20,973 nucleotides of DNA, from the IMG/VR virus record IMGVR_UViG_2778261696_000009, positions 1 to 20,973 of that record, one strand, 5' to 3'. Shown piece after piece: positions 1 to 17,058 of the stretch (the stretch's first letter is position 1; every line of letters starts with the position of its first letter). This DNA is from a virus. Lineage: Duplodnaviria; Heunggongvirae; Uroviricota; Caudoviricetes. A program made the translations under genes and the position numbers. The notes below the pieces were generated by a model, which saw nothing but the letters and a program-made list of their open reading frames with translations, had not been told where the DNA came from and did no database searches.

Positions 1-411
1 ATGCCTGCCCCCGTCGTCCTGATCCTTGCGGCCGGGCGTGGAGAGCGCTTTCTCGCCTCCGGGGGAAATACCCATAAGTGTATCGGCTGGCGTCAGTCCC
101 CGGAGGTTGCGCCTTATCGCTGGCCATTTGAAGAAAACGGGAGAACTTTCGACCTTGCGATTGAACCGCAGATTACGACTAATGATCTGCGTCTGATGTT
201 GAGGCTGGCTCTTGCCGGCGGAGGAATAACAATTGCCACTCAGGAAACTTTCAGGCCATATATTGAAAGCGGTAAGCTTGTATCGCTGCTTGATGACTTT
301 CTTCCACAATTTCCGGGCTTCTATCTGTATTTCCCACAGCGTCGCAATATTGCACCAAAGCTCCGCGCCCTGATTGACTACGTCAAAGAATGGCGGCAGC
401 AATTGGTTTAA
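1..411 (+). CDS. LysR-family transcriptional regulator, C-terminal fragment (5' end lies outside the window)
   Basis: ORF open from the window edge to a stop at 409-411. The C-terminal stretch (ITIATQETFRPYIESGKLVSLLDDFLPQFPGFYLYFPQRRNIAPKLRALIDYV) looks like the tail of a LysR substrate-binding domain. The first ~40 codons may be frame artefact. Likely host chromosome flanking the inserted DNA. Confidence 0.55.
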   Translation: MPAPVVLILAAGRGERFLASGGNTHKCIGWRQSPEVAPYRWPFEENGRTFDLAIEPQITTNDLRLMLRLALAGGGITIATQETFRPYIESGKLVSLLDDFLPQFPGFYLYFPQRRNIAPKLRALIDYVKEWRQQLV

Positions 412-536
412 ATAGCTGCACCTGCACTGCCTGATGTCAGAACAGTATTTTGATGAATTGCCAAGGTTACAATGGCACAAATGCGGCACAGGAGGAAACG
501 TGGTGTATTTAAATATGGGGTAACTCTTTGATTTTA

Positions 537-553
537 ATGGTGCGATAATAGGA
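537..553. repeat. Candidate attL core: left copy of a 17/18-nt direct repeat (ATGGTGC-GATAATAGGA) flanking the P4-like element
   Basis: ATGGTGCGATAATAGGA at 537-553 recurs as ATGGTGCCGATAATAGGA at 8653-8670, with a single 1-nt indel. One copy lies just outside the crr end and the other just outside the integrase end, as expected for att sites of an integrated element. Confidence 0.4.
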
Positions 554-612
554 ATGAATATTAAAAGTTAAGACATTGATTTATAATAGATTATTATATT
601 CAAAAAATATAA

Positions 613-633
613 CTATACACATATCTATACACA
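613..633. promoter_or_regulatory. Tandem CTATACACA(T) motifs, candidate integrase arm-type binding sites (left end)
   Basis: CTATACACAT at 613-622 and CTATACACA at 625-633. The same 10-mer occurs at 8532-8541 and inverted at 8488-8497, next to the integrase start. Four copies sit inside the element ends, between the candidate att core and crr or int. Confidence 0.35.
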
Positions 634-670
634 CTGCGCGCATCGCTTGTTTTTTACACAATTAAAAGTA

Positions 671-977
671 AGAAAAAAGTTTTTTTTCGAAAGAACTGTT
701 CACACTGTTCACCTTTCTTTTGTCTCCTTTTATTTCAGAGTGATAGGTGGTGAATAATGGGTGAAGGGTGAACATTCGATTCTTCACCTCCGGCATTCTG
801 CCGGTGTGACTCATACCGGTGATTAATCCCCCATACTGAAATCACACAGGGAGAAAAAAAAGTTTTTTTTGATTTGATTGTTCACACTGTTCACCTTTCG
901 TTTTTCTCTTTTAATTTCAGTGTGATAACGGGTGAATACACGGTGAAGGGTGAACAGTGGATTGTTCACCTTCGGGG
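671..977. repeat. crr-like cis replication region: two ~125-bp direct repeats (671-800 and 851-977), each with TGTTCACC-type iterons in both orientations
   Basis: Both units start with an A-run/T-run (AGAAAAAAGTTTTTTTT) and share near-identical sequence. Exact TGTTCACC octamers at 706-713, 888-895 and 963-970; reverse complement GGTGAACA at 767-774 and 949-956; near-iterons TGTTCACA at 697-704 and 879-886. Located directly downstream of the alpha gene, as recalled for P4 crr. Confidence 0.75.
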
Positions 978-986
978 AATTCAGGG

Positions 987-1013
987 ATAAAAAAAGACCG
1001 GCAGATGCCGGTC
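987..1013 (-). terminator. Rho-independent terminator downstream of alpha
   Basis: On the minus strand: GC-rich hairpin GACCGGC-(4-nt loop)-GCCGGTC at 996-1013, immediately followed by a run of 7 T (plus-strand A-run 989-995). It sits 17 nt after the alpha stop. Confidence 0.6.
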
Positions 1014-1029
1014 AGATGAGTCATGATGG

Positions 1030-3363
1030 TCAGGTTGTCGCAGGGTCGTCACATTTTGGCAGCCAGTCGCCGTAGCTTTCCTCTTTCAGCGTCAGGTTGG
1101 TCTGTATCCCCTGTTTGGTATGGCGCTTCTCGTAATTCAGTCCGTATTCCTTCAGCATCACCGGCAGCCCCAGCCCGAACATTTTCAGACTGAGTACATT
1201 CCGGTAGCCGTTTGCCTCCATGTAGGCCAGATAGGCGTGATAGAGGTATTTACGGTAATTGCGCGGGATGATACTGGCGTTCCCCATATACATGCCGCTG
1301 GTCTGCGGCAGGGTTTCCAGATAGCCGATAAAATCAAACGTCGGGTCGGCATCCCGTTTGATGTTCAGCGCCTCGTATGAGTTCTGCTGGGACTGAAGCA
1401 GTGACCGGGCGAGCATCGGGTCGCTGAACTTCTGCATCAGGTGACGCACGATGACCGCCAGCTCGCGGGTGATTTTGTCCTTAAGCTGCGGGTCGCGCTC
1501 CTGCGGGGCTATCTGTTCCGGGAAGTGAATAATCACCCGCCGGCGTGACACGCCGCCGCTGCGGTCGGTGAAGCGCATCGGGTTATTGTTCACGGCCAGA
1601 ATTACCGCCGGGATATGCGTGGAGTATGCATCCCGGTATTTCGGGTCAACGGACACCGCATCGCCGCCGGTGATGGCCTTGAGTCCGGCACCGTCGCCGC
1701 TCCATTTTTCCTGGTCCGGCAGGCGTATCAGTGAGAAGCCAGTTAACGCGGCACGTTCACGCGGGGATTCCAGCGTCTCGATGGTGGCCGACGTGGCGTT
1801 ATCCTCCCCGGCCAGCAGGGTGGCTATTTCGGCCATGATACTTTTGCCGCTGCCGCCGGGACCGGTCACCTCCAGAAAGAGCTGCCAGTCGTAGCGGTTT
1901 GCCAGCACCATAAACAGTGCGGCCAGAATCACGTCGCGTTTTTCCGCACGACCACCGGCGGCACGGTCAAGCCAGCGCCAGAACGCGGGGGCGTGGGTTT
2001 CCAGCGTTTCCCCTTCCACCGGCGGGGTGAAATCCACATCGCACAGGGTGCGCATCCAGTGTGACGGACTGTGCGGGTGGAACGTGCCGCTCTGCGTGTC
2101 GAGCACGCCGTTACGAAAGCCAATCAGGCGGCGGGAGGGGGCTTCCTGCTGCGGAATAATCAGCTTCAGGGTGTCCACCACGGAGGCCACCTTCCCGGAG
2201 GAGAACGGCGCGCGCAGACGCTGAAACAGCCCGGCCACATCCCGGGCAAAGTCCTGTGGCGGCAGCACCTTCCAGACACCATTTTCATAGCGGGACAGAA
2301 GCTGGCCGTTGGCATCGACCGCGAGCGCCTCGCCGTAATGCTCATAGATACGCATGGCCTTTTCGCTGGTACTCATGGCGGAAAACTCCGCTTCGCTCAT
2401 GGTGTCGAACGGGCTTTCAGCCGGTGGCCGGATGGCATCATAAATGGCCTTACGGGTGGCTTCCCCGCCGTACTGCGTGAAGGCATCATTCCAGTCACCG
2501 AAGACCGGCGGCAGGGCAACAACACCTTCACACGCATCTGCGGCTGCGGCGGCTTTTGTCTGGCCGTCACCGCTGAGGTCACGGTCAGCAGCAAGGACAA
2601 TCTGACAGGCCGGATGCTTCTGCCGGGCAAGGCTGGCCAGAGAAAGGAGGTTCACGGAAGAAAGCGCCACCATCACCGTTTCACCGGTCAGGTGATGCAC
2701 GGTAAGTGCGGTCGCGTATCCCTCCGCTATCCACAGACGTTTTCCGGCCTGATTCTGTCCTTCAAGGGTGTGACAGGTGCCCCTGACCTGTCCGCCTTTC
2801 AGGGTGCGCTTACGGCCGTCAGCGCTGATTAACTGAAGGTTAACCAGTTCGCCGCTGTCGTCATACAGTGGCACCACAAGGTCACCGGCGCACCAGCTCA
2901 CGCCACCGGCTCTGTGTGTGCCGGTCAGCATCCGGCATTCCCGGCCGGGAAAACCCTTGCGGGTCAGGTAGGCGTTACCGGTTCCGGGACGGGTTTTCGC
3001 CATCAGGGTTTGTGCCAGTGCGGCGGCGTTCTTCCGGGCAGCGTCTGTTTCAGCACCGGCGGCGGCCGTCACTGCCGGGTCAGCCGGGGGCAGACAGCCG
3101 GTCACGGCAGCCACCTTTGCGGCCGCGTCGGACGGGGAAACACCAAACACCTTTTCAACCAGTTTCAGGCCGTCACCGGCACCACACTGATTGCAGTACC
3201 AGGTGCCGCGCCCCTCCCTGTCATCAAAACGGAAGCGGTCACTCCCGCCACAGACCGGACAGGGCTGATGACGGTTTTTCAGCACCTGAATCCCCAGCGC
3301 CGGGAGAATACGCGGCCAGTGGCCGAGCGCATGGCTGACGGTGGCGGTTACGTTCATTTTCAT
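1030..3363 (-). CDS. alpha: P4-type alpha protein: bifunctional DNA primase / helicase / origin-binding replication protein
   Basis: 777-aa ORF, the length recalled for P4 alpha. N-terminal zinc-binding motif (CPVCGG...CNQCG), Walker A P-loop (GPGGSGKS) mid-protein, and a C-terminal domain upstream of the TGTTCACC iterons it would bind. AAGGAG RBS 8 nt upstream of the ATG. GC-rich. Confidence 0.9.
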   Translation of the reverse strand: MKMNVTATVSHALGHWPRILPALGIQVLKNRHQPCPVCGGSDRFRFDDREGRGTWYCNQCGAGDGLKLVEKVFGVSPSDAAAKVAAVTGCLPPADPAVTAAAGAETDAARKNAAALAQTLMAKTRPGTGNAYLTRKGFPGRECRMLTGTHRAGGVSWCAGDLVVPLYDDSGELVNLQLISADGRKRTLKGGQVRGTCHTLEGQNQAGKRLWIAEGYATALTVHHLTGETVMVALSSVNLLSLASLARQKHPACQIVLAADRDLSGDGQTKAAAAADACEGVVALPPVFGDWNDAFTQYGGEATRKAIYDAIRPPAESPFDTMSEAEFSAMSTSEKAMRIYEHYGEALAVDANGQLLSRYENGVWKVLPPQDFARDVAGLFQRLRAPFSSGKVASVVDTLKLIIPQQEAPSRRLIGFRNGVLDTQSGTFHPHSPSHWMRTLCDVDFTPPVEGETLETHAPAFWRWLDRAAGGRAEKRDVILAALFMVLANRYDWQLFLEVTGPGGSGKSIMAEIATLLAGEDNATSATIETLESPRERAALTGFSLIRLPDQEKWSGDGAGLKAITGGDAVSVDPKYRDAYSTHIPAVILAVNNNPMRFTDRSGGVSRRRVIIHFPEQIAPQERDPQLKDKITRELAVIVRHLMQKFSDPMLARSLLQSQQNSYEALNIKRDADPTFDFIGYLETLPQTSGMYMGNASIIPRNYRKYLYHAYLAYMEANGYRNVLSLKMFGLGLPVMLKEYGLNYEKRHTKQGIQTNLTLKEESYGDWLPKCDDPATT

Positions 3364-3377
3364 GGTGTTGTTCTCCT

Positions 3378-3626
3378 TCAGTGCAGTACCGGCGCTTTTA
3401 TGTGACGGGCACAGAGTTCATCCATCACAACCAGCCCGAGAAAGGACAGCGACGGCGCGGCCTTCAGGGGGCCGGATTCCATTAAATCTTCCAGCAGGGC
3501 ACAGGCTATCTGACGCCCTTTTTCCTCACCGTGCTGGCGCAGATAAAAGCCCTCCAGCTCAGCGGCGATGGCCGCCTCCAGTGACTCAAGGGTGAGATGC
3601 GGGTAGCGGTGCTGACGTTCGCACAC
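3378..3626 (-). CDS. Small protein in the epsilon position, directly upstream of and co-oriented with alpha; identity unverified
   Basis: Stop lies 14 nt upstream of the alpha ATG and overlaps the alpha RBS, suggesting co-transcription. The start is uncertain: GTG at 3626 has no obvious RBS and internal ATGs exist. Called by position only. Confidence 0.35.
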
Positions 3627-3716
3627 GGTCAGCCAGGCACAGGCGACAGCGCGACGGTAAAGGGCAGCGCGTAAGACGGGCGGTACCGCGATTCACTGAC
3701 GTCAGCCTCCGGCAGT

Positions 3717-3998
3717 ATGAAACGCCCGAAAAGAATGCTTGTTACCGGATATTGTTGTCGGAGATGTAAAGGCCTTGCACTGTCAAGAACATCGCGGCGT
3801 CTGTCTCAGGAAGTCACCGAGCGTTTTTATGTGTGCACGGATCCGGGCTGTGGTCTGGTGTTTAAAACGCTTCAGACCATCAACCGCTTCATTGTCCGCC
3901 CGGTCACGCCGGACGAACTGGCAGAAAGCCTGCATGAAAAACAGGAACTGCCGCCAGTACGCTTAAAAACACAATCATATTCGCTGCGTCTGGAATGA
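3717..3998 (+). CDS. delta: Ogr/Delta-family zinc-finger late-gene transcriptional activator (single-domain)
   Basis: Cys4 pattern CRRC...(x22)...CTDPGC, with SRTSR and RFIVRP segments that align by eye with phage P2 Ogr (C..C...ARTSR...KERY.QC....C...RYIVKP). 93 aa as called; an alternative start is the ATG at 3735. Confidence 0.8.
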   Translation: MKRPKRMLVTGYCCRRCKGLALSRTSRRLSQEVTERFYVCTDPGCGLVFKTLQTINRFIVRPVTPDELAESLHEKQELPPVRLKTQSYSLRLE

Positions 3999-4071
3999 GG
4001 GCTGCCGGTTAACACCGGCCGTCGCCGCACACCGTATTTTTATTCTTCAGCATGATGAGAAAGAGATAACG

Positions 4072-4644
4072 ATGGAAAGCACAGCCTTACAGCAGGCCTT
4101 TGACACCTGTCAGAATAACAAAGCAGCATGGCTGCAACGCAAAAATGAGCTGGCAGCGGCCGAACAGGAATATCTGCGGCTTCTGTCAGGAGAAGGCAGA
4201 AACGTCAGCCGCCTGGACGAATTACGCAATATTATCGAAGTCAGAAAATGGCAGGTGAATCAGGCCGCCGGTCGTTATATTCGTTCGCATGAAGCCGTTC
4301 AGCACATCAGCATCCGCGACCGGCTGAATGATTTTATGCAGCAGCACGGCACAGCACTGGCGGCGGCACTGGCACCGGAGCTGATGGGCTACAGTGAGCT
4401 GACGGCCATTGCCCGAAACTGTGCCATACAGCGTGCCACAGATGCCCTGCGTGAAGCCCTTCTGTCCTGGCTTGCGAAGGGGGAAAAAATTAATTATTCC
4501 GCACAGGATAGCGACATTTTAACGACCATCGGATTCAGGCCTGACGCGGCTTCGGTGGATGACAGCCGTGAAAAATTCACCCCTGCGCAGAACATGATTT
4601 TTTCGCGTAAAAGTGCGCAACTGGCATCACGTCAGTCTGTGTAA
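4072..4644 (+). CDS. psu: Psu (polarity suppression protein; capsid decoration / Rho antagonist) of P4-like satellites
   Basis: 190-aa ORF, the length recalled for P4 Psu. Directly downstream of the delta-like gene as in the P4 sid-delta-psu operon (no sid here). GC-rich, helical-looking sequence. Confidence 0.8.
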   Translation: MESTALQQAFDTCQNNKAAWLQRKNELAAAEQEYLRLLSGEGRNVSRLDELRNIIEVRKWQVNQAAGRYIRSHEAVQHISIRDRLNDFMQQHGTALAAALAPELMGYSELTAIARNCAIQRATDALREALLSWLAKGEKINYSAQDSDILTTIGFRPDAASVDDSREKFTPAQNMIFSRKSAQLASRQSV

Positions 4645-4680
4645 AATTCCCCGAAAATCCGCCCGTTTTTACTGAAAAAA

Positions 4681-4710
4681 GCCATGCATCGATAAGGTGC
4701 ATGGCTTTGC
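4681..4710 (+). terminator. Possible terminator hairpin after psu
   Basis: Inverted repeat GCCATGCA-(9-nt loop)-TGCATGGC at 4681-4705, followed by TTT. Modest intrinsic-terminator features. Confidence 0.35.
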
Positions 4711-4735
4711 ATGCGTTTCCCTGCCTCATTTTCTG

Positions 4736-4763
4736 CAGACCGCGCCATTCCCGGCGCGGTCTG
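4736..4763. other. Perfect 11-bp GC-rich inverted repeat (CAGACCGCGCC / GGCGCGGTCTG) with a 6-nt loop
   Basis: Seen directly at 4736-4746 and 4753-4763. Not followed by a T-run, so not a classical terminator. Lies in the psu-cos interval, so it could be a packaging- or protein-binding element. Confidence 0.4.
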
Positions 4764-4808
4764 AGCGTGTCAGTGCAACTGCATTAAAACCGCCCCGCAA
4801 AGCGGGCG

Positions 4809-4827
4809 GGCGTGGCGGGGGGAGCAT
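4809..4827. other. Degenerate cos-like site (P2/P4 cohesive-end-like)
   Basis: GGCGTGGCGGGGGGAGCAT matches the recalled P2/P4 cohesive end GGCGAGGCGGGGAAAGCAC at most positions. It sits where cos lies in P4 (after psu) and coincides with the sharp GC-rich to AT-rich transition. Confidence 0.4.
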
Positions 4828-4902
4828 TGCGCGCTAAGGCTGATATTATAATTTTCTTTAATTCTATTTGGTATTTTGGCTTTATTCGTCAGAAGGAACG
4901 TT

Positions 4903-4937
4903 TAGAAATAGACCACTACAATGGATTGTAGCGGTCT
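4903..4937 (-). terminator. Terminator-like hairpin downstream of the int-RT-partner gene string
   Basis: 12-bp stem AGACCACTACAA / TTGTAGCGGTCT (one mismatch) with loop TGGA at 4910-4937. On the minus strand it is followed by ATTTCTAAA and begins about 10 nt after the partner-gene stop. Confidence 0.45.
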
Positions 4938-4946
4938 GCATGATAT

Positions 4947-5687
4947 CTAGCGTTGCATTTCAGTTACTATGAAATTTTCTTCTGTAATAGAATTCATTAT
5001 CTCAAAGTACAATTCTTCAGGTTGAATAAACGCCAACTCTTTGCAAAGGTTGACAATGGTATCACTATAAGTGATACCCATCCGAGGATTGAAAAGCTCA
5101 AATCTCTTGATGTTTCTTTTGTTTTTTGAGTAAAAGTTTAAAGTGAAATATATTAGCACCTGTCTAAGATCGTAAACACTAAACTTCCTATCTCCTGATT
5201 TTATTTCCACAAGAACATTTGAATAATAAATATCGCCATATGAATTATTTATTACTCCGCATCCATCGAATTGTGGAGACACTTCAATTTGGTTTTCCAT
5301 TCCATATCGAGACAAAATGTTTCTTGCTATTTCCCTTATGGCATTGTACTCAACCATGCTTAAGGGTAGCTTGAAGTTAGAACCGTAAGCGAACCGCTGT
5401 AGATATTCTTTTGTTTTTTCAAAAACAACCTGAAAATCAGCATTATGGAAGATATCATGTGCTGAAAGAATATTTCTGTCTAACGAATCATTCTGTATTG
5501 CCCTATATAAATTAAATGCGCACTCATTAACAAAGACGTTATTTGACCTATTAGCGCAGTCATCTAGAGGAGGATAAACGTCCTCGATGAGACTGCCGTT
5601 AATGATGCGTATGAAATTATTAGCATTTGGAAGCAATTGATTCCAAAATGAAGTGAATTTTCGAGAAAACGTTAATTCAGATATCAT
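4947..5687 (-). CDS. Partner protein of the reverse transcriptase (246 aa, unknown family; possible nuclease-like effector)
   Basis: AT-rich ORF whose ATG overlaps the RT stop as ATGA (5684-5687). No family recognised by eye. Contains GDIYYSNVLVEIKSG, i.e. D-x9-E-x-K in a hydrophobic beta-like context, weakly reminiscent of a PD-(D/E)xK nuclease core. Confidence 0.7.
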   Translation of the reverse strand: MISELTFSRKFTSFWNQLLPNANNFIRIINGSLIEDVYPPLDDCANRSNNVFVNECAFNLYRAIQNDSLDRNILSAHDIFHNADFQVVFEKTKEYLQRFAYGSNFKLPLSMVEYNAIREIARNILSRYGMENQIEVSPQFDGCGVINNSYGDIYYSNVLVEIKSGDRKFSVYDLRQVLIYFTLNFYSKNKRNIKRFELFNPRMGITYSDTIVNLCKELAFIQPEELYFEIMNSITEENFIVTEMQR

Positions 5688-7312
5688 AGCGCATCCTCAA
5701 GATTTCTTGCGGTATGCCTTTTACTTGCCCAATCCCTGTAAATCACCTCTACAAAGTTGAATGTTTTCTTATTATGCTCTCTCCAGTGCCGTCCTTCATC
5801 ACCTAAGATGTAACTGGAAACGATCAATAGTCTTCTCTGCAACGGATGCATTGCAGAGAAATTTTTTTTGATATCAGAAAGCCATGCGTAAGAATTAATT
5901 TTTGCCATTGACTGTGTAACTATGTTCTTGACTAAGATGCTTTCTGGATTGTTATTGTATATTTCACTAAGGATTAGGGTGGATTTTTCTGAATTTTCTT
6001 TTGAGAGCATTCGGGCTACATAGGCTAAGTTGAGCTCAGTACTCAAAATATATGAATCTTGTTTAATTAGTGCAGTTATTTTATCAAGAATAATATCTTT
6101 GGTTTCTGTGCTTAATTTTTGCCAGTTGGAGTTAGCTACTTGAATTATAGTTGTAAATATTGGATATAACTCATGCAAGTTATTAAACATTACTTTGAAA
6201 GCACTACTTATTATTTCATCTGATGTTGCTGAGAATGCCTTTATCAAATGCTTGCTAAAAGATTGGTTAATTTTTGATTTTTGTAACTCACTACTCAGCA
6301 TAGCTAACAAGTCAAAATCTTTTAAAGATTCCTTTATCTCTTCATATTCCTCTATCGCATTTGCTGAGTAAGGATCGAATCTTATAGGAAGACTCATAAA
6401 TTTAGCCTTCATAGGAGATTCTTCATCTTCATCATTACCATGCAACTTAGCTTTAGTTACTGAAAGGAACTCTTCTTTAGTAACAATATTGGTTTTTTGT
6501 TTCTGTAAAGTTAGCCCTTCATTTTCCATCAGTTTTTTACTAAGCAAAGTTAAAATCTTATGAGCATCCTCTCTAGAGTTACAAAAAATAACAAAGTCGT
6601 CGACATAACGCTTATAGTTGATTCTATTCATAGACAATAATTTATCAATAGAATCTAGAGCTAGTTCTGCTAATATTCTAGAGGCAGGACATCCAACTGG
6701 TACTCCATATGATTTTGTTTCACTAAATGTCTGTAGTAATTTCTTGATTTTCCCAGAGTAATCTTTATTGGGGTCGACTCTATCTAACGCATTTTCTAAA
6801 CGGTGGTGATAAATACGCGGATAGAAATCTGCTATATCGCATGTAAGTACATACTTTATTTCATCGTTAGAACATTCAGAGATACTGTCTTCTTGATATT
6901 TTCTCCAAGAGATCTCTTTATCAAAAAGAGAACCATCAGCAAGGTTTGGTTTAAAGCGATATGAATAAACCTGCGTTTTAGTAGATCTATTCCTTTCAAT
7001 ATCATCAGCGATTTTTAAAACTAACCCAAGAAAAAAAGCATTCCAGAATGGATCAATTTGGGTCGCCCACCTGTAACCATAATAACCAATACTTGAAAAG
7101 CTATTAATTATGTTTGGTGGAATCTCGATCCTTTTATTTTCAAAGTCATTAAATGTTTGCATTAATGCAGTTTTTACTTTCTCCTTATCATCTTCAAATA
7201 ACCGACTTTCAAATGGGTAAGGGAAAATATCTGTATCGCCGTGCTTTATAATATTTTCCAATGCAAGCTCAAAGCAATTTTCTAGTTTACTACTATCAAA
7301 CTCGTTACTCAT
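5684..7312 (-). CDS. Reverse transcriptase (Abi/DRT-like defence-associated RT: N-terminal RT domain plus ~250-aa C-terminal helical domain)
   Basis: RT palm motifs in canonical order: LTCDIADFYPRI (motif A-like), GVPVGCPASRILAELAL (motif B-like), YKRYVDDFVIF (motif C, YxDD box). The C-terminal half has no RT motifs and contains GRHWREH (R-x4-H). The ATG overlaps the integrase stop (AATGAGTAA) with AAGGAG 7 nt upstream. AT-rich. Confidence 0.85.
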   Translation of the reverse strand: MSNEFDSSKLENCFELALENIIKHGDTDIFPYPFESRLFEDDKEKVKTALMQTFNDFENKRIEIPPNIINSFSSIGYYGYRWATQIDPFWNAFFLGLVLKIADDIERNRSTKTQVYSYRFKPNLADGSLFDKEISWRKYQEDSISECSNDEIKYVLTCDIADFYPRIYHHRLENALDRVDPNKDYSGKIKKLLQTFSETKSYGVPVGCPASRILAELALDSIDKLLSMNRINYKRYVDDFVIFCNSREDAHKILTLLSKKLMENEGLTLQKQKTNIVTKEEFLSVTKAKLHGNDEDEESPMKAKFMSLPIRFDPYSANAIEEYEEIKESLKDFDLLAMLSSELQKSKINQSFSKHLIKAFSATSDEIISSAFKVMFNNLHELYPIFTTIIQVANSNWQKLSTETKDIILDKITALIKQDSYILSTELNLAYVARMLSKENSEKSTLILSEIYNNNPESILVKNIVTQSMAKINSYAWLSDIKKNFSAMHPLQRRLLIVSSYILGDEGRHWREHNKKTFNFVEVIYRDWASKRHTARNLEDAL

Positions 7313-8489
7313 TCACATTCTCCTTAATAAAAATATAATCTGAATACCACTGCATCATATCACGGCGTTTATCAATATATTGAGCATGATTATACGTACC
7401 TCTAATATTATTCTTATCTATATGAGCAAGCTGTATTTCTATCCAAGCCGAATCATATCCTTTTTCGTGGAGGATAGTAGATAAGGAATGTCGAAATCCA
7501 TGACCAGTAAGTTTTCCACCATAACCAATACGCTTGATAACTTGGTTAATACTCGCCTCACTCATAGGCTTGTTCGGATCGTTCCGCCCCGGAAAAACAT
7601 AACTATACTTCCCTGTCATCATCTTGAGTTCATTTAGCAAATCTAACGCTTGAGTCGACAAAGGCACAAGGTGTGATCTGCGCATTTTCATCCTTTCAGC
7701 AGGAATTTCCCAAATAGCGTTATCTAAATCAAATTCTGACCATAATGCCGCACGTAATTCGATGGTTCTAACACCTGTAATCATGAGCAATTTCGTGGCA
7801 ATCAGGACAAGCCGACTTCCGGTATATCCGTTTAAGGCGCGAAGAAAATCAGGTATCTCATTAGCCTTTAAGAACGGGAAATGATTTGATTGGTGTACAT
7901 TGAGGGCGCTTGAAAGATCCGCAGCAGGGTTAAACTCAGCCCTTCCAGTAGCAATGGCATAGCGGAAAACTTCTGAGCATCGCTGCCGAACTTTGCGCAT
8001 TTTTTCTAATGCACCGCGCTTTTCGATTTTACGCAGCACATTAAGCAGTTCTAGCGGTTTAATCTCTCCCACTGGCCTTGTTCCCACATAAGGAAAAATG
8101 TCGTTCTTAAACGCTTCCATGATGTCTGATGCATATCCCGCCGACCATTTGGTAGACTTCTGTTGATGCCACTCTCTGGCTATCTTTTCGAAGGCGTTCT
8201 CTGACTCTGTTTGCAGAGCCAGCTTTTGCTCTTTTCGAACCTCACTAGGGTTCTTTCCTTCTGCCACAAGTTTTCGAGCTTCATCACGACGGGAACGAGC
8301 ATCAGCAAGAGTGATCGTTGGGTAAACACCAAGCGAGATCATTTTGGGTTTACCGGCATAGCGATAACGAAATCGCCAGCTTTTACTTCCATTTGGCTCT
8401 ACAAGTAAAGACAACCCTTGCCCATCCCCAAGTGTATAGGCTTTAGCTTCAGGTTTAGCACGGCGAATCTGCATATCATTTAGGGGCAT
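7305..8489 (-). CDS. int: P4-type tyrosine integrase (site-specific recombinase)
   Basis: 394 aa. N-terminal arm-binding-like region, then a tyrosine-recombinase catalytic region with R (LMITGVRTIELRA), HGFRHSLST (H-x-x-R) and a C-terminal RGTYNHAQY tyrosine region. Located at the element edge next to the candidate attR. Confidence 0.9.
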   Translation of the reverse strand: MPLNDMQIRRAKPEAKAYTLGDGQGLSLLVEPNGSKSWRFRYRYAGKPKMISLGVYPTITLADARSRRDEARKLVAEGKNPSEVRKEQKLALQTESENAFEKIAREWHQQKSTKWSAGYASDIMEAFKNDIFPYVGTRPVGEIKPLELLNVLRKIEKRGALEKMRKVRQRCSEVFRYAIATGRAEFNPAADLSSALNVHQSNHFPFLKANEIPDFLRALNGYTGSRLVLIATKLLMITGVRTIELRAALWSEFDLDNAIWEIPAERMKMRRSHLVPLSTQALDLLNELKMMTGKYSYVFPGRNDPNKPMSEASINQVIKRIGYGGKLTGHGFRHSLSTILHEKGYDSAWIEIQLAHIDKNNIRGTYNHAQYIDKRRDMMQWYSDYIFIKENVNE

Positions 8490-8541
8490 GTGTATAGAAT
8501 TCCAAAATCGAACAGGAACATATACATAATCCTATACACAT
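8488..8541. promoter_or_regulatory. Int-proximal CTATACACAT motifs (one inverted copy overlapping the int start, one direct copy), candidate arm-type sites and int promoter region
   Basis: ATGTGTATAG at 8488-8497 is the reverse complement of CTATACACAT; a direct copy is at 8532-8541 and a related ACATATACATA at 8519-8529. Same motif as at 613-633. Confidence 0.35.
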
Positions 8542-8652
8542 TTAGTACTGGATTCTACTGGAAAGTTATGGACTAATACGAACAGTAAAAACAAAAAATC
8601 TTTTATAAAACAGTGCGGTTATGGATAAATACGGATGTTTGAAGAAGTGGAG

Positions 8653-8670
8653 ATGGTGCCGATAATAGGA
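8653..8670. repeat. Candidate attR core: right copy of the 17/18-nt direct repeat
   Basis: ATGGTGCCGATAATAGGA at 8653-8670 versus ATGGTGCGATAATAGGA at 537-553. It lies ~165 bp beyond the int start. Confidence 0.4.
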
Positions 8671-8727
8671 GTAAAACACTCGATTAATCTCGTGTTAATG
8701 CCATCACCTACGACCATTACTAATTGA

Positions 8728-10092
8728 TTGAATCTTATAGAAAAATCATCATTTTCTATGCGTCACAATCAATTTTCACATTACAAACGCTCCGACACTT
8801 TAGCCGGAGATTTTATGAGATACAAGCCTAACCAATACTTAATCTGTGATTCTTACGGTAACTACTATTTAAGGATCACGCTGCCTGTGTATATGCAGCC
8901 CTTTTTTGAAGGAAAAAGGACGTTTGTCAGAAGTCTACACACAAGTAATCTTCGTGTTGCACGTAGAAAGCGTGATCAGATTGCAGATGAATACCATTGC
9001 TTACGGGAGAGTGTTGCCCCTGTAAACAGCACAATAGAAAACACGCTGGAACTGTTACGCAGTAAGGCTAAATACGCCAAAACAGCTACCAGAGTGCAAG
9101 ATACAGCGTCTTCGTGTCCGTCATTGCTTAAAATTCTTGAAATCTACCTGACAATTAACAGCACGAAGAAGAAGCCAGCCACTTTAGCTAAGGCAAGAAA
9201 AGCGGTAGAGATGTTTCTCTCCTACCGTAAAAAGCCTGATATTGCATTGCAAGATGTAAGCCGCACCACTGTTACAGGCTGGATTGAACACATGCAAAAA
9301 ACTCTTTCACAACAATCAATTGCAAATTATATCAGTCCAATGGCCCAGCTATGGGAATTAGCTTCATCACGTTACCACGATGCGCCAGAAAGGGCGCTCT
9401 CCCCCTGGCGAGGGCATAGGCTTGATGTGGCACAAAGTAGAGAGAGCTACGAGGCATTTTCTAACAAAGAGCTATTGCAGGTGTTGCAAGTATTTTCCGG
9501 TAATTCAGCAGAAAACAAAGAAATGACGGCTTTGTGTCTTATCGGTTTATATACAGGTATGCGGATCAATGAGATAGCAAGTCTCACAATAGACGATGTG
9601 AAAGAGATCGAAGGTGTGCTGTGTTTTGAAATCACACAGGGAAAGACGAAAGCTGCGGCACGTGTTGTGCCTGTGCATAACCTTATCACTCCGTTGGTGT
9701 TGTCGCTGCGTGAAAAGCCTCACAATGGCTTTTTGTTCTATCACGCCAGCATTACAGAACGTGCTGACGGTAAACGCTCTACGTGGCATACACAACGATT
9801 TACAAGAGCTAAACGAAAGGCTTTAGGGGAAAAGGGAACAGAAAGGAAAGTGTTTCATTCTCTGAGACACGGAGTAGCACAGCTTCTTGATCGAAATCAA
9901 ATTCCAGAAGACAGGATCGCCCTTCTCCTGGGCCATACACGCGGCAATACAGAAACATTCCGCACATATAGCAAAAATGCAGCTTCTCCAATAGAGCTTA
10001 AAAAATATATTGAGCTTTTACGCTACCCTGAAATAGAGAAAGGCTTATCAATCAATAAAAAATCAAATTTAAGGCGTAAAACAACGCTATAG
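8728..10092 (+). CDS. Second tyrosine recombinase / phage-type integrase (likely true start at ATG 8815)
   Basis: C-terminal catalytic signatures: YTGMRINEIASL (R), HSLRHGVAQLL (H-x-x-R), LLGHTRG and FRTYSK (Tyr). The in-frame ATG at 8815 has a GGAG RBS 5 nt upstream. Divergent from the P4-type int. Confidence 0.8.
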   Translation: MNLIEKSSFSMRHNQFSHYKRSDTLAGDFMRYKPNQYLICDSYGNYYLRITLPVYMQPFFEGKRTFVRSLHTSNLRVARRKRDQIADEYHCLRESVAPVNSTIENTLELLRSKAKYAKTATRVQDTASSCPSLLKILEIYLTINSTKKKPATLAKARKAVEMFLSYRKKPDIALQDVSRTTVTGWIEHMQKTLSQQSIANYISPMAQLWELASSRYHDAPERALSPWRGHRLDVAQSRESYEAFSNKELLQVLQVFSGNSAENKEMTALCLIGLYTGMRINEIASLTIDDVKEIEGVLCFEITQGKTKAAARVVPVHNLITPLVLSLREKPHNGFLFYHASITERADGKRSTWHTQRFTRAKRKALGEKGTERKVFHSLRHGVAQLLDRNQIPEDRIALLLGHTRGNTETFRTYSKNAASPIELKKYIELLRYPEIEKGLSINKKSNLRRKTTL

Positions 10093-10172
10093 ACGTAATA
10101 AAGAGGCTTCAATATAGACTGATGCCTCTTTTATGATTATCTCGTTACAGAGCGTTTCATAGGCGTTTAAGG

Positions 10173-10850
10173 CTATTGTTTAAATACTGGCGTTACAACG
10201 TCTTGCCCTGGGCTTTTTTGATTTTTCTGTTCTGTTGTATTTACCTGCATTTTAACCTGGCCTCCTACAGATTTATTTGGTGCTGTTTTTACCGCAATTG
10301 CGCTTGTAGTTGCTTTAGAGACAAGACGGATTTGCTCAAAATCAAGAGTAAACAATAGGCTTTCGCTTGCTTCTTCTTCGTAAGACATGCCAACTAACAC
10401 AACGTTGTCATAATTTTTTAACTCAGTGACAAGTAGGAAAGGTTGGCGACTGTCCATCAACTGATTTAGGTATTCAAGCATAAGCATACGTCGATTGCCG
10501 TTAATTCCAGCATTCTTAATCATATCAGGATTGAGCTTCAATACGGTTTCAGAGATACGCCCTTGTAATGTGAACTTGTTATTCCGTATTTGAACATGAT
10601 CACTAACTTCTGATCCTGATTCGACGGCATAGCTTGTAACGTCCGCATTTCTGCTAACTTTCGTCGATTCCACGCTATCAAATGATAATGCCTGGTAGTC
10701 ATTGTAAGCAGCATTTGCACCACTGCCGAGATTAGAGGTAATGATCGCAAAGCCGTTACCCCCTTTGGTTGTTCTACCGTTGCTATCGTTGCTTGTGCTG
10801 TTGATTTTCGCCTCAGTCGGGCGACCAATGGTTAACGGACCCATTGCCAT
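10173..10850 (-). CDS. Hypothetical protein (225 aa), last gene of the structural-looking operon
   Basis: ORF with AAGGA RBS upstream of the ATG at 10850; Ser/Thr/Asn/Gly-rich N-terminus. Follows the 613-aa gene on the same strand. Function not recognisable by eye. Confidence 0.5.
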   Translation of the reverse strand: MAMGPLTIGRPTEAKINSTSNDSNGRTTKGGNGFAIITSNLGSGANAAYNDYQALSFDSVESTKVSRNADVTSYAVESGSEVSDHVQIRNNKFTLQGRISETVLKLNPDMIKNAGINGNRRMLMLEYLNQLMDSRQPFLLVTELKNYDNVVLVGMSYEEEASESLLFTLDFEQIRLVSKATTSAIAVKTAPNKSVGGQVKMQVNTTEQKNQKSPGQDVVTPVFKQ

Positions 10851-10897
10851 AATTTGTAATCCTTATTTAAGGGGGCTAAACAGCCCCACAGTGATGA

Positions 10898-12739
10898 TTA
10901 ATAGGTTGACCCGCCTGACATAACACCCAGCGTTAATAGCTTGCTAAACTCAGCGGAGGATGCCTTTGATTTGAAGTCGATAAATTCGCTCAATCGTCCG
11001 GTGTCTGATTCGATAGTTAGCGGCACTTCTGCATTTACTTGTAATTCTGGATTGAAGTTAATAACAGGTGCAAAGGTGTAAGAAGGAGCCTTGAAAGCTT
11101 GTTGTGCTGCACTCTGTTTCAGATTTGCAATGTTTTGTCCTTCGAGACTGTATTGATTTACAGCCTGCGCCCCACCTACCGTTTCTTCTGGCATAAACCA
11201 GCTTTTAATAGTGTTAACCAGGGAATTGCTGTTATCTGGCTTAGTTGTTCCGGTGCCAGCGCCTTTATATTGATCAGGAGTGAGATTAGAAAGATTCTGC
11301 TTCATTCCTTCGTTAGATAGTGGCGGTGCATCCCCTAAATTCTTCTGAATAGCTTCCGTCTTCTCGTCGTTTTTCATCAGCCAGTTGATTGTTTTCATTA
11401 CGGCGTTAACCAATCCGCCGATAGCCTCGCCTAATTTGGTAAACATTGGCAGCATTGCAACCATGCTCTTTTTAAACTCTTCAATCACTTTCGGATCAAG
11501 AGATTTCATAAAGCCATCAACAAAGGCGATCCCTTGTGAGTCAGAAAGCCCACTAAGTGCATTATTCAGTTCACGGAATTTAATAACGCTTTCCTGTTGT
11601 GCCTGTGTTACCCAGCGCCCTGATTCTCGTTGTTCTCGTGCTGATTGTTCCACTTCTTTAGCGGAGCGTGTCCAGTATTTAGAGGTGAGCATCAAATCAT
11701 CAGCCAGATCTTCCAGACGACTACCGATTTGTGCATCTGAATAGCCTTTCTTCACCATTCCCTGAACTGCTTTACTAACCAGACCAGCCGGATTATCAGC
11801 AAAGTCTTTTAGATCCTTTTTAGTTAAGAATCCTTCATTCATTAAAGTATTGATGCCGCTATCGCCGCCCTTCCATTCACCTTTGCCTGTTTTTTTATCG
11901 ACTACATATTCAGCCTCATCATAGCTTTTGGTTGCACGCTCACGCACATCTTTCATCTGATCGAGATACTTACGTTTACCTTGATCCCCCATCATTGAAT
12001 CAACGCCGTTTTTGTAGGCCCATTGCTCAATATTGTTCATCTGGTTAACGTCTACACCGCCCAGCTTCGCACGGCTATACAATTCACCCAGCGTTTCAGC
12101 ATTCGCAAAGCTGTTAGTAACAAATTCAGAGGCTTTGCTCATAGCCATATACGTAGCGCCAGCGCCTAAGCCACCCAGCATAACAGCCGCAGCACCGCCG
12201 CCAATACTCCCGCTACCCTTAACAGGTGCATAGGCTTTAGCGTGAGCGTTACGATTGCCATTAATCTTACGTTGTTGCTGTTGTAGGCGTTTCATTTGGC
12301 TATTCATACGTGCCAGACTAATAGCTCCTCTTTCATATTGGAGGGCAATTTCTCTAGCCTGTGCAATAGCTTTATATTGTTCCGCTACAGAAAGGCGGTG
12401 CAATGCACTAATGCTTGATCCAACGTCTAACAGTTTTAAGTCTGCCTTCTCTTTGCGTGCTGCCAGGGCTTTTTGTTCTCTTGCAACTACACGTTGAGCG
12501 GCTAATTGTGCTTTAGCATTGGCTTTATCTGCCTGTGCTTGCTTTTTAGCAATATCGTCTACGTCTTTTTTTGCTTTAGAAGTTGATTGTTTATGTGTCT
12601 TAACACGCAATTCTATATCTTTCACCGCCGCCATTTGTTTACGAAGTTTTTCTACTTCTGCTTTTGCTTTCTCTAATGATGGTCGATCAACCTGGAAGGT
12701 GACAACGTTTGATAAGCGGCTGACGTTAAGTTCTAACAT
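10898..12739 (-). CDS. Large coiled-coil / glycine-rich protein (613 aa), tape-measure-like or scaffold-like
   Basis: N-terminal ~150 aa strongly charged Lys/Ala/Gln-rich heptad-like sequence, then a Gly-rich hydrophobic segment (GSGSIGGGAAAVMLGGLGAGATYMAMS). This architecture is typical of phage tape-measure or internal virion proteins; the assignment is tentative. Confidence 0.6.
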   Translation of the reverse strand: MLELNVSRLSNVVTFQVDRPSLEKAKAEVEKLRKQMAAVKDIELRVKTHKQSTSKAKKDVDDIAKKQAQADKANAKAQLAAQRVVAREQKALAARKEKADLKLLDVGSSISALHRLSVAEQYKAIAQAREIALQYERGAISLARMNSQMKRLQQQQRKINGNRNAHAKAYAPVKGSGSIGGGAAAVMLGGLGAGATYMAMSKASEFVTNSFANAETLGELYSRAKLGGVDVNQMNNIEQWAYKNGVDSMMGDQGKRKYLDQMKDVRERATKSYDEAEYVVDKKTGKGEWKGGDSGINTLMNEGFLTKKDLKDFADNPAGLVSKAVQGMVKKGYSDAQIGSRLEDLADDLMLTSKYWTRSAKEVEQSAREQRESGRWVTQAQQESVIKFRELNNALSGLSDSQGIAFVDGFMKSLDPKVIEEFKKSMVAMLPMFTKLGEAIGGLVNAVMKTINWLMKNDEKTEAIQKNLGDAPPLSNEGMKQNLSNLTPDQYKGAGTGTTKPDNSNSLVNTIKSWFMPEETVGGAQAVNQYSLEGQNIANLKQSAAQQAFKAPSYTFAPVINFNPELQVNAEVPLTIESDTGRLSEFIDFKSKASSAEFSKLLTLGVMSGGSTY

Positions 12740-12773
12740 GCTAATTGTTTCCCTGTATTATGATTGTTGTTTA

Positions 12774-12971
12774 TTATTGTTTTTTAGAGCAATAGTATTG
12801 AATTGCTTCGAAAGTGCTGCACCCAGTCTGAAAGACACGCTGGCGCACATTATTTGCATCAATTTCTAAAAGGCGGCAAAGCGCCGATGTGTTTATAACT
12901 GATTCCTCGCTAATAGCTGCCAGTTCTTTTACAGCCTTAAGAATAAAGGATTGTGAGTTTTCTGTATTCAT
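12774..12971 (-). CDS. Small hypothetical protein (65 aa)
   Basis: ORF between the capsid-like and 613-aa genes on the same strand; weak RBS; no recognisable motif. Confidence 0.35.
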   Translation of the reverse strand: MNTENSQSFILKAVKELAAISEESVINTSALCRLLEIDANNVRQRVFQTGCSTFEAIQYYCSKKQ

Positions 12972-13122
12972 TGGTTTTCTCTCACATATATATTTTTATT
13001 TGGGTTTGTAGACAGTAGAAAAACAAAAAGGGCAAAGAGATTCGTTACTGTATTTGCGCCTACAGGTTAGTTAATCCCTTTACCCTTATTGCCCCGATGG
13101 GGAATCGTCTATTAACGCTTTA

Positions 13123-14154
13123 TTACGCAGCAGATCCGAAGATGATAGCTTGCGGAATGTTGTTTACTGGCAGATAAGATGTCTCAGTAACCACAGATGG
13201 GAATTGGAATTCATCCTTGATTAGATATTGGTGATGCAACACGGCATCTTGACCTAACTCAGCATGACGCACACCAACGCCGCTATGAAGCTGGTAACAC
13301 TGTGCCGCTTTATCCATTACCGGAACAATTGCGAAACCGTTCTCTCCGATGTGAGCAACAATCTCAGGAAACATTGACACATCAATAACAGTGATCCCAC
13401 CAATCTGGAAAGAGTCATAGGCTGGGTTAGAATCAACCATACGGGTAAACAGGGCCGTAGCACTCGCATCGCCTGCATATTTCACCATGTCACTGATCAG
13501 CGGGTTAGATGACAAACCATCAGCAGCAGTGCCAGCAGCAAAGATAATTACACCAGTTCGCTTTGCAGCAAGACCAGACCCCAGCTTTTCACTCTGTAAG
13601 CGCACCGCTTTACGAATAGCAAGGAACGGGTTAACAGTAGTCGATGCAAAGTCGATAGCGGGTACCGTGGTTTTAGCCTGACCGTCGAGGAAGTCGAGAT
13701 CACCTTGTCCGGCATATTCAGATTCAACTTTCAGGCCCAGCAGCGCGGTAATCAGATCCACTTCAACACGGTTTGCGTGTGAACGGTAATGAGCCTCAGA
13801 GAAATCATTAACCGCTACCAGCATAGCATCAGAACGGTTTGGATATTGGCGGCTGTATTGTTCCAGGTCACGAGAAGTAACAGCGTTAATACTGCCGACG
13901 TGTTTCATCTGGAAAAGTTTGTTTGACCATTCCTGACGTTTAGAGGCGTTCCAGTCGCTTTGAGCGTAAGGCGAGGTTTCCCCAGCTACCTGCACAAACT
14001 GATCAATCAGGTCGGTAAGAAGAATGCTGTTTTCTGTATGATATTGCACATCGAACAGATCGAGATTAGTAATCAGGGTATTAAGTGCATTCTCATAAGC
14101 AAATGGAGTTACTACCGCAGTATTAACGCCAAAATATGTTGATAAATCATTCAT
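13123..14154 (-). CDS. Putative major capsid-like protein (343 aa); identity tentative
   Basis: Strong RBS (AAGGAAA, 8-nt spacer). Size and position immediately after a ~127-aa decoration-like gene mirror the lambda-type D-E (decoration, major capsid) arrangement. No direct sequence match could be verified by eye. Confidence 0.55.
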   Translation of the reverse strand: MNDLSTYFGVNTAVVTPFAYENALNTLITNLDLFDVQYHTENSILLTDLIDQFVQVAGETSPYAQSDWNASKRQEWSNKLFQMKHVGSINAVTSRDLEQYSRQYPNRSDAMLVAVNDFSEAHYRSHANRVEVDLITALLGLKVESEYAGQGDLDFLDGQAKTTVPAIDFASTTVNPFLAIRKAVRLQSEKLGSGLAAKRTGVIIFAAGTAADGLSSNPLISDMVKYAGDASATALFTRMVDSNPAYDSFQIGGITVIDVSMFPEIVAHIGENGFAIVPVMDKAAQCYQLHSGVGVRHAELGQDAVLHHQYLIKDEFQFPSVVTETSYLPVNNIPQAIIFGSAA

Positions 14155-14168
14155 TATTATTTTCCTTG

Positions 14169-14552
14169 TTAAGTCGTAGGGATCGCAAGTTCTTCATAAC
14201 CAGCAATTACAAAGCCGAGAGATTGCAGTTTTGCAATAACACTTGCCTTTTCCATGCTGTTAAATTCAATCCCATCTTCAGCCAGAATAACGAAAGTAGG
14301 ATGTGCAACCACTACGCTTTCCTGTCCTTCATAAGCCGGTTCAACTACTACGTGAGCAATATCAGATGCGGTTGTTGCTTTGGTGCCATCGGCTTTCAGC
14401 AAAGCCCCGACAATAAGATCGTCAGTGAGAGGTGAAGCCAGTTTGACGAGGCGATCTTGCAGCACTGGATCAGCAGCGTAAGCTACTACCTTACAGCGTG
14501 AACGGGAGTTATCCGCATTCACTGCTTTTAATTTTCCATATGGGTTAGCCAT
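14169..14552 (-). CDS. Putative head-decoration-like / small structural protein (127 aa); identity tentative
   Basis: RBS AAAGGAAAA embedded in the end of the upstream small gene (tight coupling). Ala/Val/Gly-rich beta-looking sequence; size and position are consistent with a capsid decoration protein. Confidence 0.5.
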   Translation of the reverse strand: MANPYGKLKAVNADNSRSRCKVVAYAADPVLQDRLVKLASPLTDDLIVGALLKADGTKATTASDIAHVVVEPAYEGQESVVVAHPTFVILAEDGIEFNSMEKASVIAKLQSLGFVIAGYEELAIPTT

Positions 14553-14556
14553 AAGA

Positions 14557-14754
14557 TTATTTTCCTTTCAGTTGTTTAATTTTAGATTTAAGGGCATCAG
14601 CAAGACTAACCGCATCAGCCGATTTAAATAATTGAGCAGTGGTAGAACGAAGACTTTCGGGAGTAACTCCCAACAGTGCGGCAACCTTAATGAGGTTTTC
14701 ATCACTAACAATCATCGTTTCCCCGTCTTTGCTGATAATCATTTCTTGTTTCAT
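14557..14754 (-). CDS. Small protein (66 aa from ATG 14754; the track calls a TTG start at 14796), first gene of the structural-looking operon
   Basis: ATG at 14754 is preceded by AGGAAC. Its stop overlaps the RBS of the next gene. Confidence 0.45.
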   Translation of the reverse strand: MKQEMIISKDGETMIVSDENLIKVAALLGVTPESLRSTTAQLFKSADAVSLADALKSKIKQLKGK

Positions 14755-15738
14755 AAATAATGTTCCTGTTAGTGCCAGACAAATAAAAAGCCCCAATGCC
14801 GTAAGAGGTTAATTCTGACCAGCAAAGGGGCTTTAACGTGCGGGCAATTACATAATTGATAAGTTAAACTATAAGAGGATTAAACATATCAGCAAATACA
14901 CTTTTTAAATATACTTGATGATATGCTTAAAGGGTGAATAGATACTCCTGAAAACATGCTCTTAGGAAAACATGCGGAATCAATCAGGAATATCTATTCG
15001 GGGCGCGGTGGCCAACCGCTATCTTTCATGGTGTGGATGCACCAGTCAGATTTTAAGGAATCACTATTCCAATCTACTCACAGATTAAATTTTTAATAAT
15101 GATTAACTACACCAACAGTAATCTACCGTTTCAGAAAATCGTTTTTACAACCAAAGCTTATAGATCCGCATTCTATAAAACCCGTTTTGCTATCAATATT
15201 TCCAAAGTTTATTGCACCATTCTTAGCTAAACTCTCTCTGCTTGCGGCTAACGCTATGCAGATGATTGTTTTTGACAACAACTTAATAGATTATTCTGTT
15301 ACTAACTTCTGTCATTAAATAATAGTTTAATGATGTTAGTAAATAGTTATAAAATATAACTATCAGTGTAAGGCTCTTTAATGTTTTCTGACAAAATAAG
15401 GAGCTTTAGGATAAGCATAGATGAAAAATAATAGCGGGAAGGGCAAGGAGATAACACCTACCCGCTTTTATCAAAATTAAGCACAATGCCTAACAACATT
15501 CATCAACACAACGTAGAAACAATCAACAATCAAAGAGGGAGTTATGATTATTCTAAAACTTCTTGAGAGATGGAAGGTAATATTTGTTAGAGGTTAATGC
15601 CACTCAACCTTTGAGGCTATCACCTTCCATATGCAGGGATTTATGACAGTAGAAGGATTAACACCAACTAAAATCTTTTTATCTACCCCTAAAATTATTA
15701 TATAACAAAATCATTATAAATGCAAATAATTTTCATTA

Positions 15739-16038
15739 TCATTTAGAGAAAATAGCACTTTTTGCTAAATCATCTACTAATTGCTGAATCTCTTCACTTG
15801 CAACCTTTAACGTGGTGGCGATGTCTGTGATGATTTGATTACACTGTTTTGCATCGTCCTCTGATACGCTCACCAGAGAGATAAAATCGTCAAGGCTTAC
15901 ATTCACCTTCATTAAGCTAATAACGCATTGAGAGAGCGTGTAATCGCATAAATCTGAATAGGCTTGATTTATTCTTGTTTGTAGTGAGATAGTCAGATCT
16001 AAAAGTTGTTCCATTGCATTGCTAATATCTTCTTCCAT
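15739..16038 (-). CDS. Small hypothetical acidic protein (99 aa)
   Basis: ATG overlaps the stop of the upstream gene (TAATG); AAGGAG RBS 9 nt upstream. Last gene of a minus-strand string of small ORFs. Confidence 0.5.
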   Translation of the reverse strand: MEEDISNAMEQLLDLTISLQTRINQAYSDLCDYTLSQCVISLMKVNVSLDDFISLVSVSEDDAKQCNQIITDIATTLKVASEEIQQLVDDLAKSAIFSK

Positions 16039-16240
16039 TATGCGTATTCTCCTTGTAATGCATCATTAATCATATTCAATACGATGTTAAAAGGTGTCTT
16101 GAGCGTCAGCACTTCATCACGGTAACGCTCTAATGCTTCGTAGTCTTCTGTTTCTTTTGCCAGCCGAATTAACTCTGCATAGTTTTTTGCATCAGACAGG
16201 ATCATCTGAAATAATTGTGTTTCTTGAATATAGCCAATCA
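16038..16240 (-). CDS. Small hypothetical protein (67 aa from ATG 16240; the track extends to 16283)
   Basis: ATG at 16240 has an AGGA-containing RBS (AAAAAAGGAAAAATAATG); the upstream ATG at 16283 has none. Stop overlaps the next start. Confidence 0.5.
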
Positions 16241-16298
16241 TTATTTTTCCTTTTTTGAATATTTTCATTGGGCGCTTATACATACACCCATCATTTTA

Positions 16299-16682: not shown

Positions 16683-16779
16683 TTTTCCCTCTTTTTATGT
16701 GGATTATAAAAACTGGACGCCATTGTTACGATGAATATCGCCATAAATGCATTTGCCATATGTATTGCCCGATCTGTTG

Positions 16780-17049: not shown

Positions 17050-17058
17050 TTATTCTCC

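Follow-up and report, generated by a model that had tools for sequence, protein, structure and literature searches.

An apparently compact P4-like regulatory region that is almost certainly the scar of a single 3.2-kb deletion in a thrW prophage carrying DRT8

The region around positions 3378 to 4072 of a 20,973-nt stretch of viral DNA (IMG/VR record IMGVR_UViG_2778261696_000009; the whole stretch is called the window here) raises the question of whether a P4-like satellite can be built around a shortened regulatory region or whether part of a conventional element has been removed. A first-pass annotation described a reduced P4-like regulatory architecture with no sid, a single-domain delta, and only about 90 bp between the divergent gene sets, in which immunity and capsid-size determination were either organized differently or lost. 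Its coordinates agreed with the open reading frame (ORF) list and Pfam. A minus-strand ORF at 3378 to 3626 and an Ogr/Delta-type ORF at 3717 to 3998 are divergent and separated by a 90-bp gap (3627 to 3716), and psu follows at 4072 to 4644.

BLAST comparison with P4 (NC_001609) resolved this part of the window into two collinear arms. The left arm (window 674 to 3685) corresponded to P4 4291 to 7291 with 97.8% identity over 3,012 nt, and the right arm (window 3684 to 4808) corresponded to P4 10500 to 11624 with 99.0% identity over 1,125 nt; no further matching sequence lay between both arms. In base-by-base alignment, the left arm gave way cleanly to the right arm at a shared TA (3684/3685). 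Relative to P4, 3,210 bp (P4 7292 to 10501) are missing, and relative to an intact sibling element (E. coli JNE141411), 3,209 bp; the breakpoints were identical whichever of the two was used for alignment. Both breakpoints fall inside ORFs, with ORF106 codon 4/5 joined to delta codon 62/63. The features of the interval are the following.

3378 to 3685, minus strand: ORF106 remnant (DUF5375), codons 5 to 106; start codon and upstream sequence deleted; longest ORF with a canonical start at 3378 to 3626
3684 to 3685, no strand: deletion junction, a 2-bp TA microhomology at which P4 7291 is joined to P4 10500 (BLAST and base-by-base alignment)
3686 to 3998, plus strand: delta remnant, codons about 63 to 166; second Ogr/Delta zinc-finger domain only; the ATG ORF at 3717 to 3998 is residues 74 to 166
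4072 to 4644, plus strand: psu, intact, 190 aa; 99.5% identical to P4 Psu; Pfam Psu, E = 1.3e-88

The earliest sign of a cut gene was the match of the 82-aa minus-strand ORF to Pfam DUF5375, in which only profile positions 25 to 106 of 106 aligned. This ORF had been labeled as lying in the epsilon position; by Pfam and tblastn it is P4 ORF106 (DUF5375) without its start codon, and P4 ORF106 residues 5 to 106 mapped to 3686 to 3381 at 99% (tblastn). The delta remnant was 97% identical to P4 delta residues 62 to 166 (tblastn), and the ORF at 3717 to 3998 was 100% identical to residues 74 to 166 of the sibling's 166-aa delta. Pfam placed two Ogr_Delta stretches in P4 delta and one in the window ORF; the "single-domain delta" does contain one Ogr_Delta domain, but it corresponds to the C-terminal half of a delta that has two and is not a genuine single-domain gene. 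Similarly, the distance of about 90 bp was right as a length and mistaken as an intergenic spacer, the sequence being coding leftovers of ORF106 (3627 to 3685, codons 5 to 24) and of delta (3686 to 3716, codons about 63 to 73).

In the RefSeq/PGAP annotation, delta is a pseudogene ("incomplete; missing N-terminus"), and the DUF5375 coding sequence is given as 104 aa at window 3378 to 3692 on the minus strand, with an ATC at 3690 to 3692 as its start. That ATC lies in delta-derived DNA across the junction, and the PGAP extension of DUF5375 is therefore an annotation artifact that hides the truncation; the ATC is a homology-driven start call.

A full-length copy of the element was found at the same site in E. 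coli JNE141411 (NZ_AP027256.1) and 19451123 (NZ_CP191548.1). The insertion site is flanked by the paoD/yagP' pseudogene and thrW, and the order in JNE141411 is paoD-yagP'-alpha...int-thrW. Accessions for Psu, Drt8, its partner protein, and Int were identical between the intact sibling and the window's strain. The window aligned to JNE141411 over 1 to 3685 and 3684 to 8672. Apart from the 3,209-bp gap, the 8,672 nt differ by 4 substitutions, of which one, D663Y in alpha, is nonsynonymous. The prophage of JNE141411 and 19451123 has the same site, psu, DRT8, and int as the window and, unlike the window, also has the 3,209 bp that carry all the immunity, origin, sid, and delta functions together with the C4/isrK RNAs. 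Within this segment, the sibling's ORF88 homologue matched Pfam Phage_AlpA and its epsilon matched Pfam Derepression. The deletion is recent.

The corresponding segment of the P4 record (7292 to 10501) contains, besides ORF106 codons 1 to 4 and delta codons 1 to 62, ORF151, the gene for the helper derepression protein epsilon, ORF88 (an excisionase and transcriptional regulator by its annotation), and sid, as well as the cI region and a rep_origin at 9086 to 9809. The comparison with P4 and P4-like prophages that the first-pass annotation had called for thus shows immunity, ori, sid, and half of delta removed by one deletion. The interval is almost certainly the scar of a single 3,209- to 3,210-bp deletion by illegitimate recombination in a canonical P4-type thrW prophage with DRT8 cargo, and no observation spoke against the deletion as such. 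A distinct reduced regulatory architecture is not supported, in view of the breakpoints inside ORFs, the 90 bp of coding debris with no promoter-like site, and a sibling that is 99.95% identical, canonical, and full length. Of the two outcomes that had been offered for immunity and capsid-size determination, the 3.2-kb deletion directly demonstrates the second: they are lost, not reorganized. The element is a decayed, defective P4 remnant and no new design.

Around the breakpoints, direct and inverted repeats were sought and only chance words of 7 and 6 nt were found; the longest common direct word within 60 bp was 7 nt. An origin of the deletion by homologous recombination, whether between delta's two domains or between any other repeats, was rejected on this ground. 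Because there is no breakpoint repeat beyond the TA, the mechanism is illegitimate, microhomology-type joining. Exact matches to an 81-nt probe across the junction were present in 30 genomes among 5,426 complete E. coli genomes, with varied hosts and serotypes (sources were humans, pigs, chickens, cats, and water). That the junction is an assembly or sequencing artifact collapsing 3.2 kb has next to no chance of being correct, given an identical junction in 30 independently assembled complete genomes and no collapse-prone repeat at the breakpoints.

Functions carried by the missing segment were sought in the window. All P4 proteins were compared with the whole window by tblastn, and Sid, epsilon, ORF151, the cI-ORF, and ORF88 were not found; the best E-values were 0.31 for Sid, bearing out the absence of a sid-sized ORF, 1.8 for epsilon, and 8.4 for ORF88. 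Rfam (immunity RNA families RF01695, RF03163, and RF01394) gave no RNA family match in the whole window at the gathering threshold and, at E ≤ 10 over 3300 to 4900, only chance matches far below threshold. As a positive control, the sibling's extra segment gave C4 at 77.9 bits, isrK at 74.7 bits, and c4-a1b1 at 51.5 bits, and C4 antisense RNA matches fell within the P4 cI (immunity) region. On these searches, the window has neither a C4-type RNA nor its target repeats in the left-operon leader, the components of antisense-RNA immunity of the P4 CI/C4 type. A cI-like RNA hidden in the interval was rejected on the Rfam null result, which held even at E ≤ 10. The first-pass annotation had held that a Sid homologue or a cI-like RNA in the interval would overturn its reading; tblastn and Rfam, with the Rfam control positive in the sibling, detected neither.

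The promoter and RNA structure that it had proposed looking for were likewise absent from the interval in the promoter scan of 3300 to 4900 and in Rfam. The promoter and terminator scan of 3300 to 4900 returned no promoter-like site in or near 3627 to 3716, and a compact divergent promoter region in the 90 bp was rejected for this reason. Only two promoter consensus matches occurred in 3300 to 4900, both on the minus strand inside psu (4522 to 4493 and 4259 to 4231) and both weak (9 of 12).

These results bear on whether the interval could be a minimal but working P4-like design of a truly different kind, with a short divergent promoter region driving psu and a single-domain delta and with immunity or size control located elsewhere. 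Some P4-like elements of E. coli do naturally have a single-domain delta, of 81 aa (6 of 60 sampled rows; e1-39 is an example), and they resemble the window in having one Ogr/Delta zinc-finger domain upstream of psu. In contrast to the window, however, the short delta of these elements is whole and sits directly downstream of sid, and the elements have the full set of core genes. The window ORF is only 38% identical to the 81-aa deltas but 100% identical to the latter half of a delta with two domains, and it is not a complete gene of about 81 aa with its own start after sid. Moreover, both breakpoints cut ORFs, the 90 bp are coding debris with no promoter-like site, and neither Sid nor C4 RNA occurs anywhere in the 21-kb window. 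The full-length sibling, 99.95% identical and at the same site, in effect refutes a minimal architecture, and we give this reading hardly any credence.

The natural 81-aa delta lineage, presumably of the phiR73 type, consists of complete P4-like elements with delta directly after sid. Such elements made up about 10% of sampled sid-delta-psu matches, covering 69% of the P4 sid-delta-psu query, and the 81-aa delta gene of e1-39 (selC) lies at 5732 to 5977 of sequence L011. The sid-delta-psu matches came to 1,289 places in all.

Outside the interval, the remainder of the prophage was delimited and annotated as follows.

538 to 553, no strand: distal att repeat, TGGTGCGATAATAGGA, an imperfect copy of the tRNA-Thr (thrW) 3' end; k-mer match of 543 to 553 to 8660 to 8670
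673 to 975, no strand: crr, the P4 cis replication region, retained; direct repeats of about 120 bp at 673 to 793 and 855 to 975; aligns to P4 crr 4291 to 4590
1030 to 3363, minus strand: alpha primase-helicase, full length, 777 aa; 98.6% identical to P4 alpha; Pfam primase zinc-ribbon, Toprim, and D5
4790 to 4827, no strand: cos region, with the P4 right end (P4 11624) at 4808 and then a cos-like 19-mer, GGCGTGGCGGGGGGAGCAT, at 4809 to 4827
4947 to 5687, minus strand: PD-(D/E)XK-type DRT8 partner; PADLOC RTasPDDEXK, E = 5.5e-69; cargo in the psu-int hotspot
5684 to 7312, minus strand: Drt8 reverse transcriptase; PADLOC Drt8, E = 4.9e-166; Pfam RVT_1; defense cargo
7305 to 8489, minus strand: tyrosine integrase, thrW specific; Pfam Arm-DNA-bind_3, Phage_int_M, and Phage_integrase; 39% identical to P4 Int (tblastn)
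8654 to 8672, no strand: proximal att, the 3'-terminal 19 nt of tRNA-Thr, where identity with the single-prophage sibling stops and a second island starts

By DNA identity, the element belongs to the P4 lineage, with a near-identical backbone on both sides of the junction. It is 97.8 to 99.0% identical to P4 (NC_001609/X51522) over crr, alpha, ORF106, the C-terminal half of delta, psu, and the right cos end, and gene order and orientation are the same. It differs from P4 in lacking P4 7292 to 10501, in having a thrW-specific integrase that is 39% identical, and in its hotspot cargo, which is DRT8 in the window and gop/beta/cII in P4. Backbone identity to P4 halts exactly at the P4 right end, which fits an exchange of the hotspot module from cos onward. 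Between the cos-like 19-mer GGCGTGGCGGGGGGAGCAT and GGCGAGGCGGGGAAAGCAC of P4 (positions 1 to 19) there are 4 mismatches. In the cargo, the predicted Drt8 reverse transcriptase gene overlaps the adjacent gene for its PD-(D/E)XK partner, as expected for DRT type 8, and the integrase-DRT8 region was present at ≥80% coverage in about 105 complete E. coli genomes.

The att repeat is imperfect and was missed at a repeat seed of 12 and detected by an 11-mer search; the distal att flank is also present in the intact JNE141411 sibling. On the proximal side, the window matched JNE141411 up to its position 15588, within tRNA-Thr (15570 to 15645). The tRNA search found no tRNA gene within the window, the intact thrW lying beyond its end. 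The ORF that begins at base 1 (window 1 to 411) encodes part of a LysR-family substrate-binding protein; it adjoins paoD, and the annotation gives it as a pseudogene without its N terminus. Its first approximately 23 residues lie outside the LysR domain. At this point the thrW island region, where CP4-6 lies in K-12, has its distal limit.

A second island (8673 to 20973) lies between the att of the P4-type prophage and the intact thrW. It encodes a 454-aa tyrosine integrase (DUF6538) at its thrW-distal end, a Dit-like tail protein, an HTH protein, a serine resolvase, and several family-less proteins, and PADLOC gave no matches in it. Some carriers of the deletion allele are without the second island: the integrase directly abuts thrW in KSC9, EC21, and I2. 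In EC12, a second island lies between the integrase and thrW. As the junction allele occurs both with and without the second island, it has outlasted one or more further insertions, and its persistence would fit neutrality and benefit alike.

P4-like satellites have been defined by seven components (int, psu, delta, sid, alpA, epsilon, and alpha), of which at most two may be missing (de Sousa & Rocha, PMC8628076). The window contains an integrase, psu, and alpha; sid, an alpA-type regulator (ORF88/vis), epsilon, and a complete delta are absent, although the truncated delta would still register as an Ogr_Delta match in a profile search. With sid, alpA/ORF88, and epsilon absent and delta truncated, the element falls outside this definition.

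The consequences of the deletion can be read from established P4 biology. The event removed ORF151, epsilon, ORF88 (vis/alpA), ori, and sid, together with the start of ORF106, the first of delta's two zinc-finger domains, and the kil/cI region with the CI (C4-type) immunity RNA and its targets. Both att sites are still there, as are alpha, crr, psu, cos, DRT8, and int. From gene order, the left-operon and sid-delta-psu promoters must have lain between the deleted genes and would have been removed as well, which would leave alpha, the delta remnant, and psu transcriptionally orphaned. Absence of the CI RNA would mean no P4 immunity, absence of ori no replication from ori, absence of epsilon no derepression of a P2 helper, and absence of Sid no redirection of capsid size and no small capsids. 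Excision would be poor in the absence of Vis, and the element is probably unable to excise efficiently. It would survive as an immobilized remnant in which DRT8 may be the sole module with an evident present-day role. Some transcription of the ORF106 remnant and alpha might arise from the weak minus-strand promoter-like sites inside psu, and residual activity of the delta remnant, whose Ogr_Delta domain is complete and which has an ATG in frame, is conceivable.

Other decayed P4-type prophages of E. coli show a similar structure. In ZYB62 (selC), WL164 (leuX), and ETEC4088 and E6474/774 (thrW), as in the window, internal deletions have removed central functions, and truncated delta and/or psu stand beside an integrase and defense cargo. 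Their breakpoints and left partners differ from those of the window and mark independent events. Internal deletion is a common decay mode of P4-type prophages, for which the cryptic CP4 prophages of K-12 are the textbook analogue. WL164 (sequence L009), with three clean internal deletions relative to P4 (5191 to 6820 inside alpha, 7212 to 8882, and 9624 to 10522), shows the same decay further along.

Four independent deletion alleles had right breakpoints at P4 10500, ~10521, ~10557, and ~10559, within 60 bp of one another and just upstream of the second zinc-finger domain of delta. Their left partners were all different (ORF106, the ori region, ORF151, and the chromosomal ykgR flank). The delta breakpoints are located as follows.

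Delta-breakpoint positions: window 3684 to 3760; L004, ~9262; L008, ~6001; L009, ~7050; L010, ~5001

Other sampled alleles ended inside psu (P4 10917, 11008, 11270, and 11279), and no right breakpoint among the sampled alleles, a small sample, fell inside sid or delta domain 1. The clustering could reflect a hot spot, selection, or chance. That P4-type deletions repeatedly stop upstream of delta domain 2, through a recombination hot spot or through selection keeping half-delta, psu, and the defense cargo, is a long shot. A delta breakpoint hot spot was kept as a weak lead only, since wider sampling gave psu-internal ends and E6474 and 774 carry the same allele. If the variant with selection were true, half-delta (phiR73-like) would potentially be an activator or sensor of P2 late promoters, and such remnants would be helper-responsive modules and not junk.

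Selection enters more broadly in adaptive domestication, by which loss of kil, epsilon, ori, sid, and vis would immobilize and detoxify the satellite and the host would keep the int-linked DRT8 and perhaps psu. Several independent P4-type deletion alleles retain int, defense cargo, and psu (the window allele, ETEC4088, E6474/774, ZYB62, and WL164), but some others remove psu sequence. The window allele is common to the 30 junction carriers, of human, pig, chicken, cat, and water origin, and predates or has survived the second-island insertion; these carriers, however, may be one clone, and intact copies of the same element persist too. With only 4 substitutions since the split from the sibling, there has been no time for neutral decay, and intact alpha and psu are uninformative. 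The psu-int hotspot of P4-like satellites is a known reservoir of anti-phage systems (PMC9122126; PMC8628076), and its cargo is known to give anti-phage defense (PMC9122126). We consider domestication rather unlikely as the explanation of the window allele.

A plain deletion scar is an ordinary explanation. In itself the finding matters little, beyond providing a clean, datable example of the decay of a P4 satellite prophage, in which one microhomology-mediated deletion strips the immunity, origin, helper-manipulation, and capsid-size genes and the integrase-linked defense system stays. It also carries two cautions: scars read at the level of ORFs mimic new compact architectures, and automated annotation can extend a truncated gene across a junction, as PGAP did with DUF5375. 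For satellite censuses, such elements lie below the core-gene threshold, yet they still supply defense genes.
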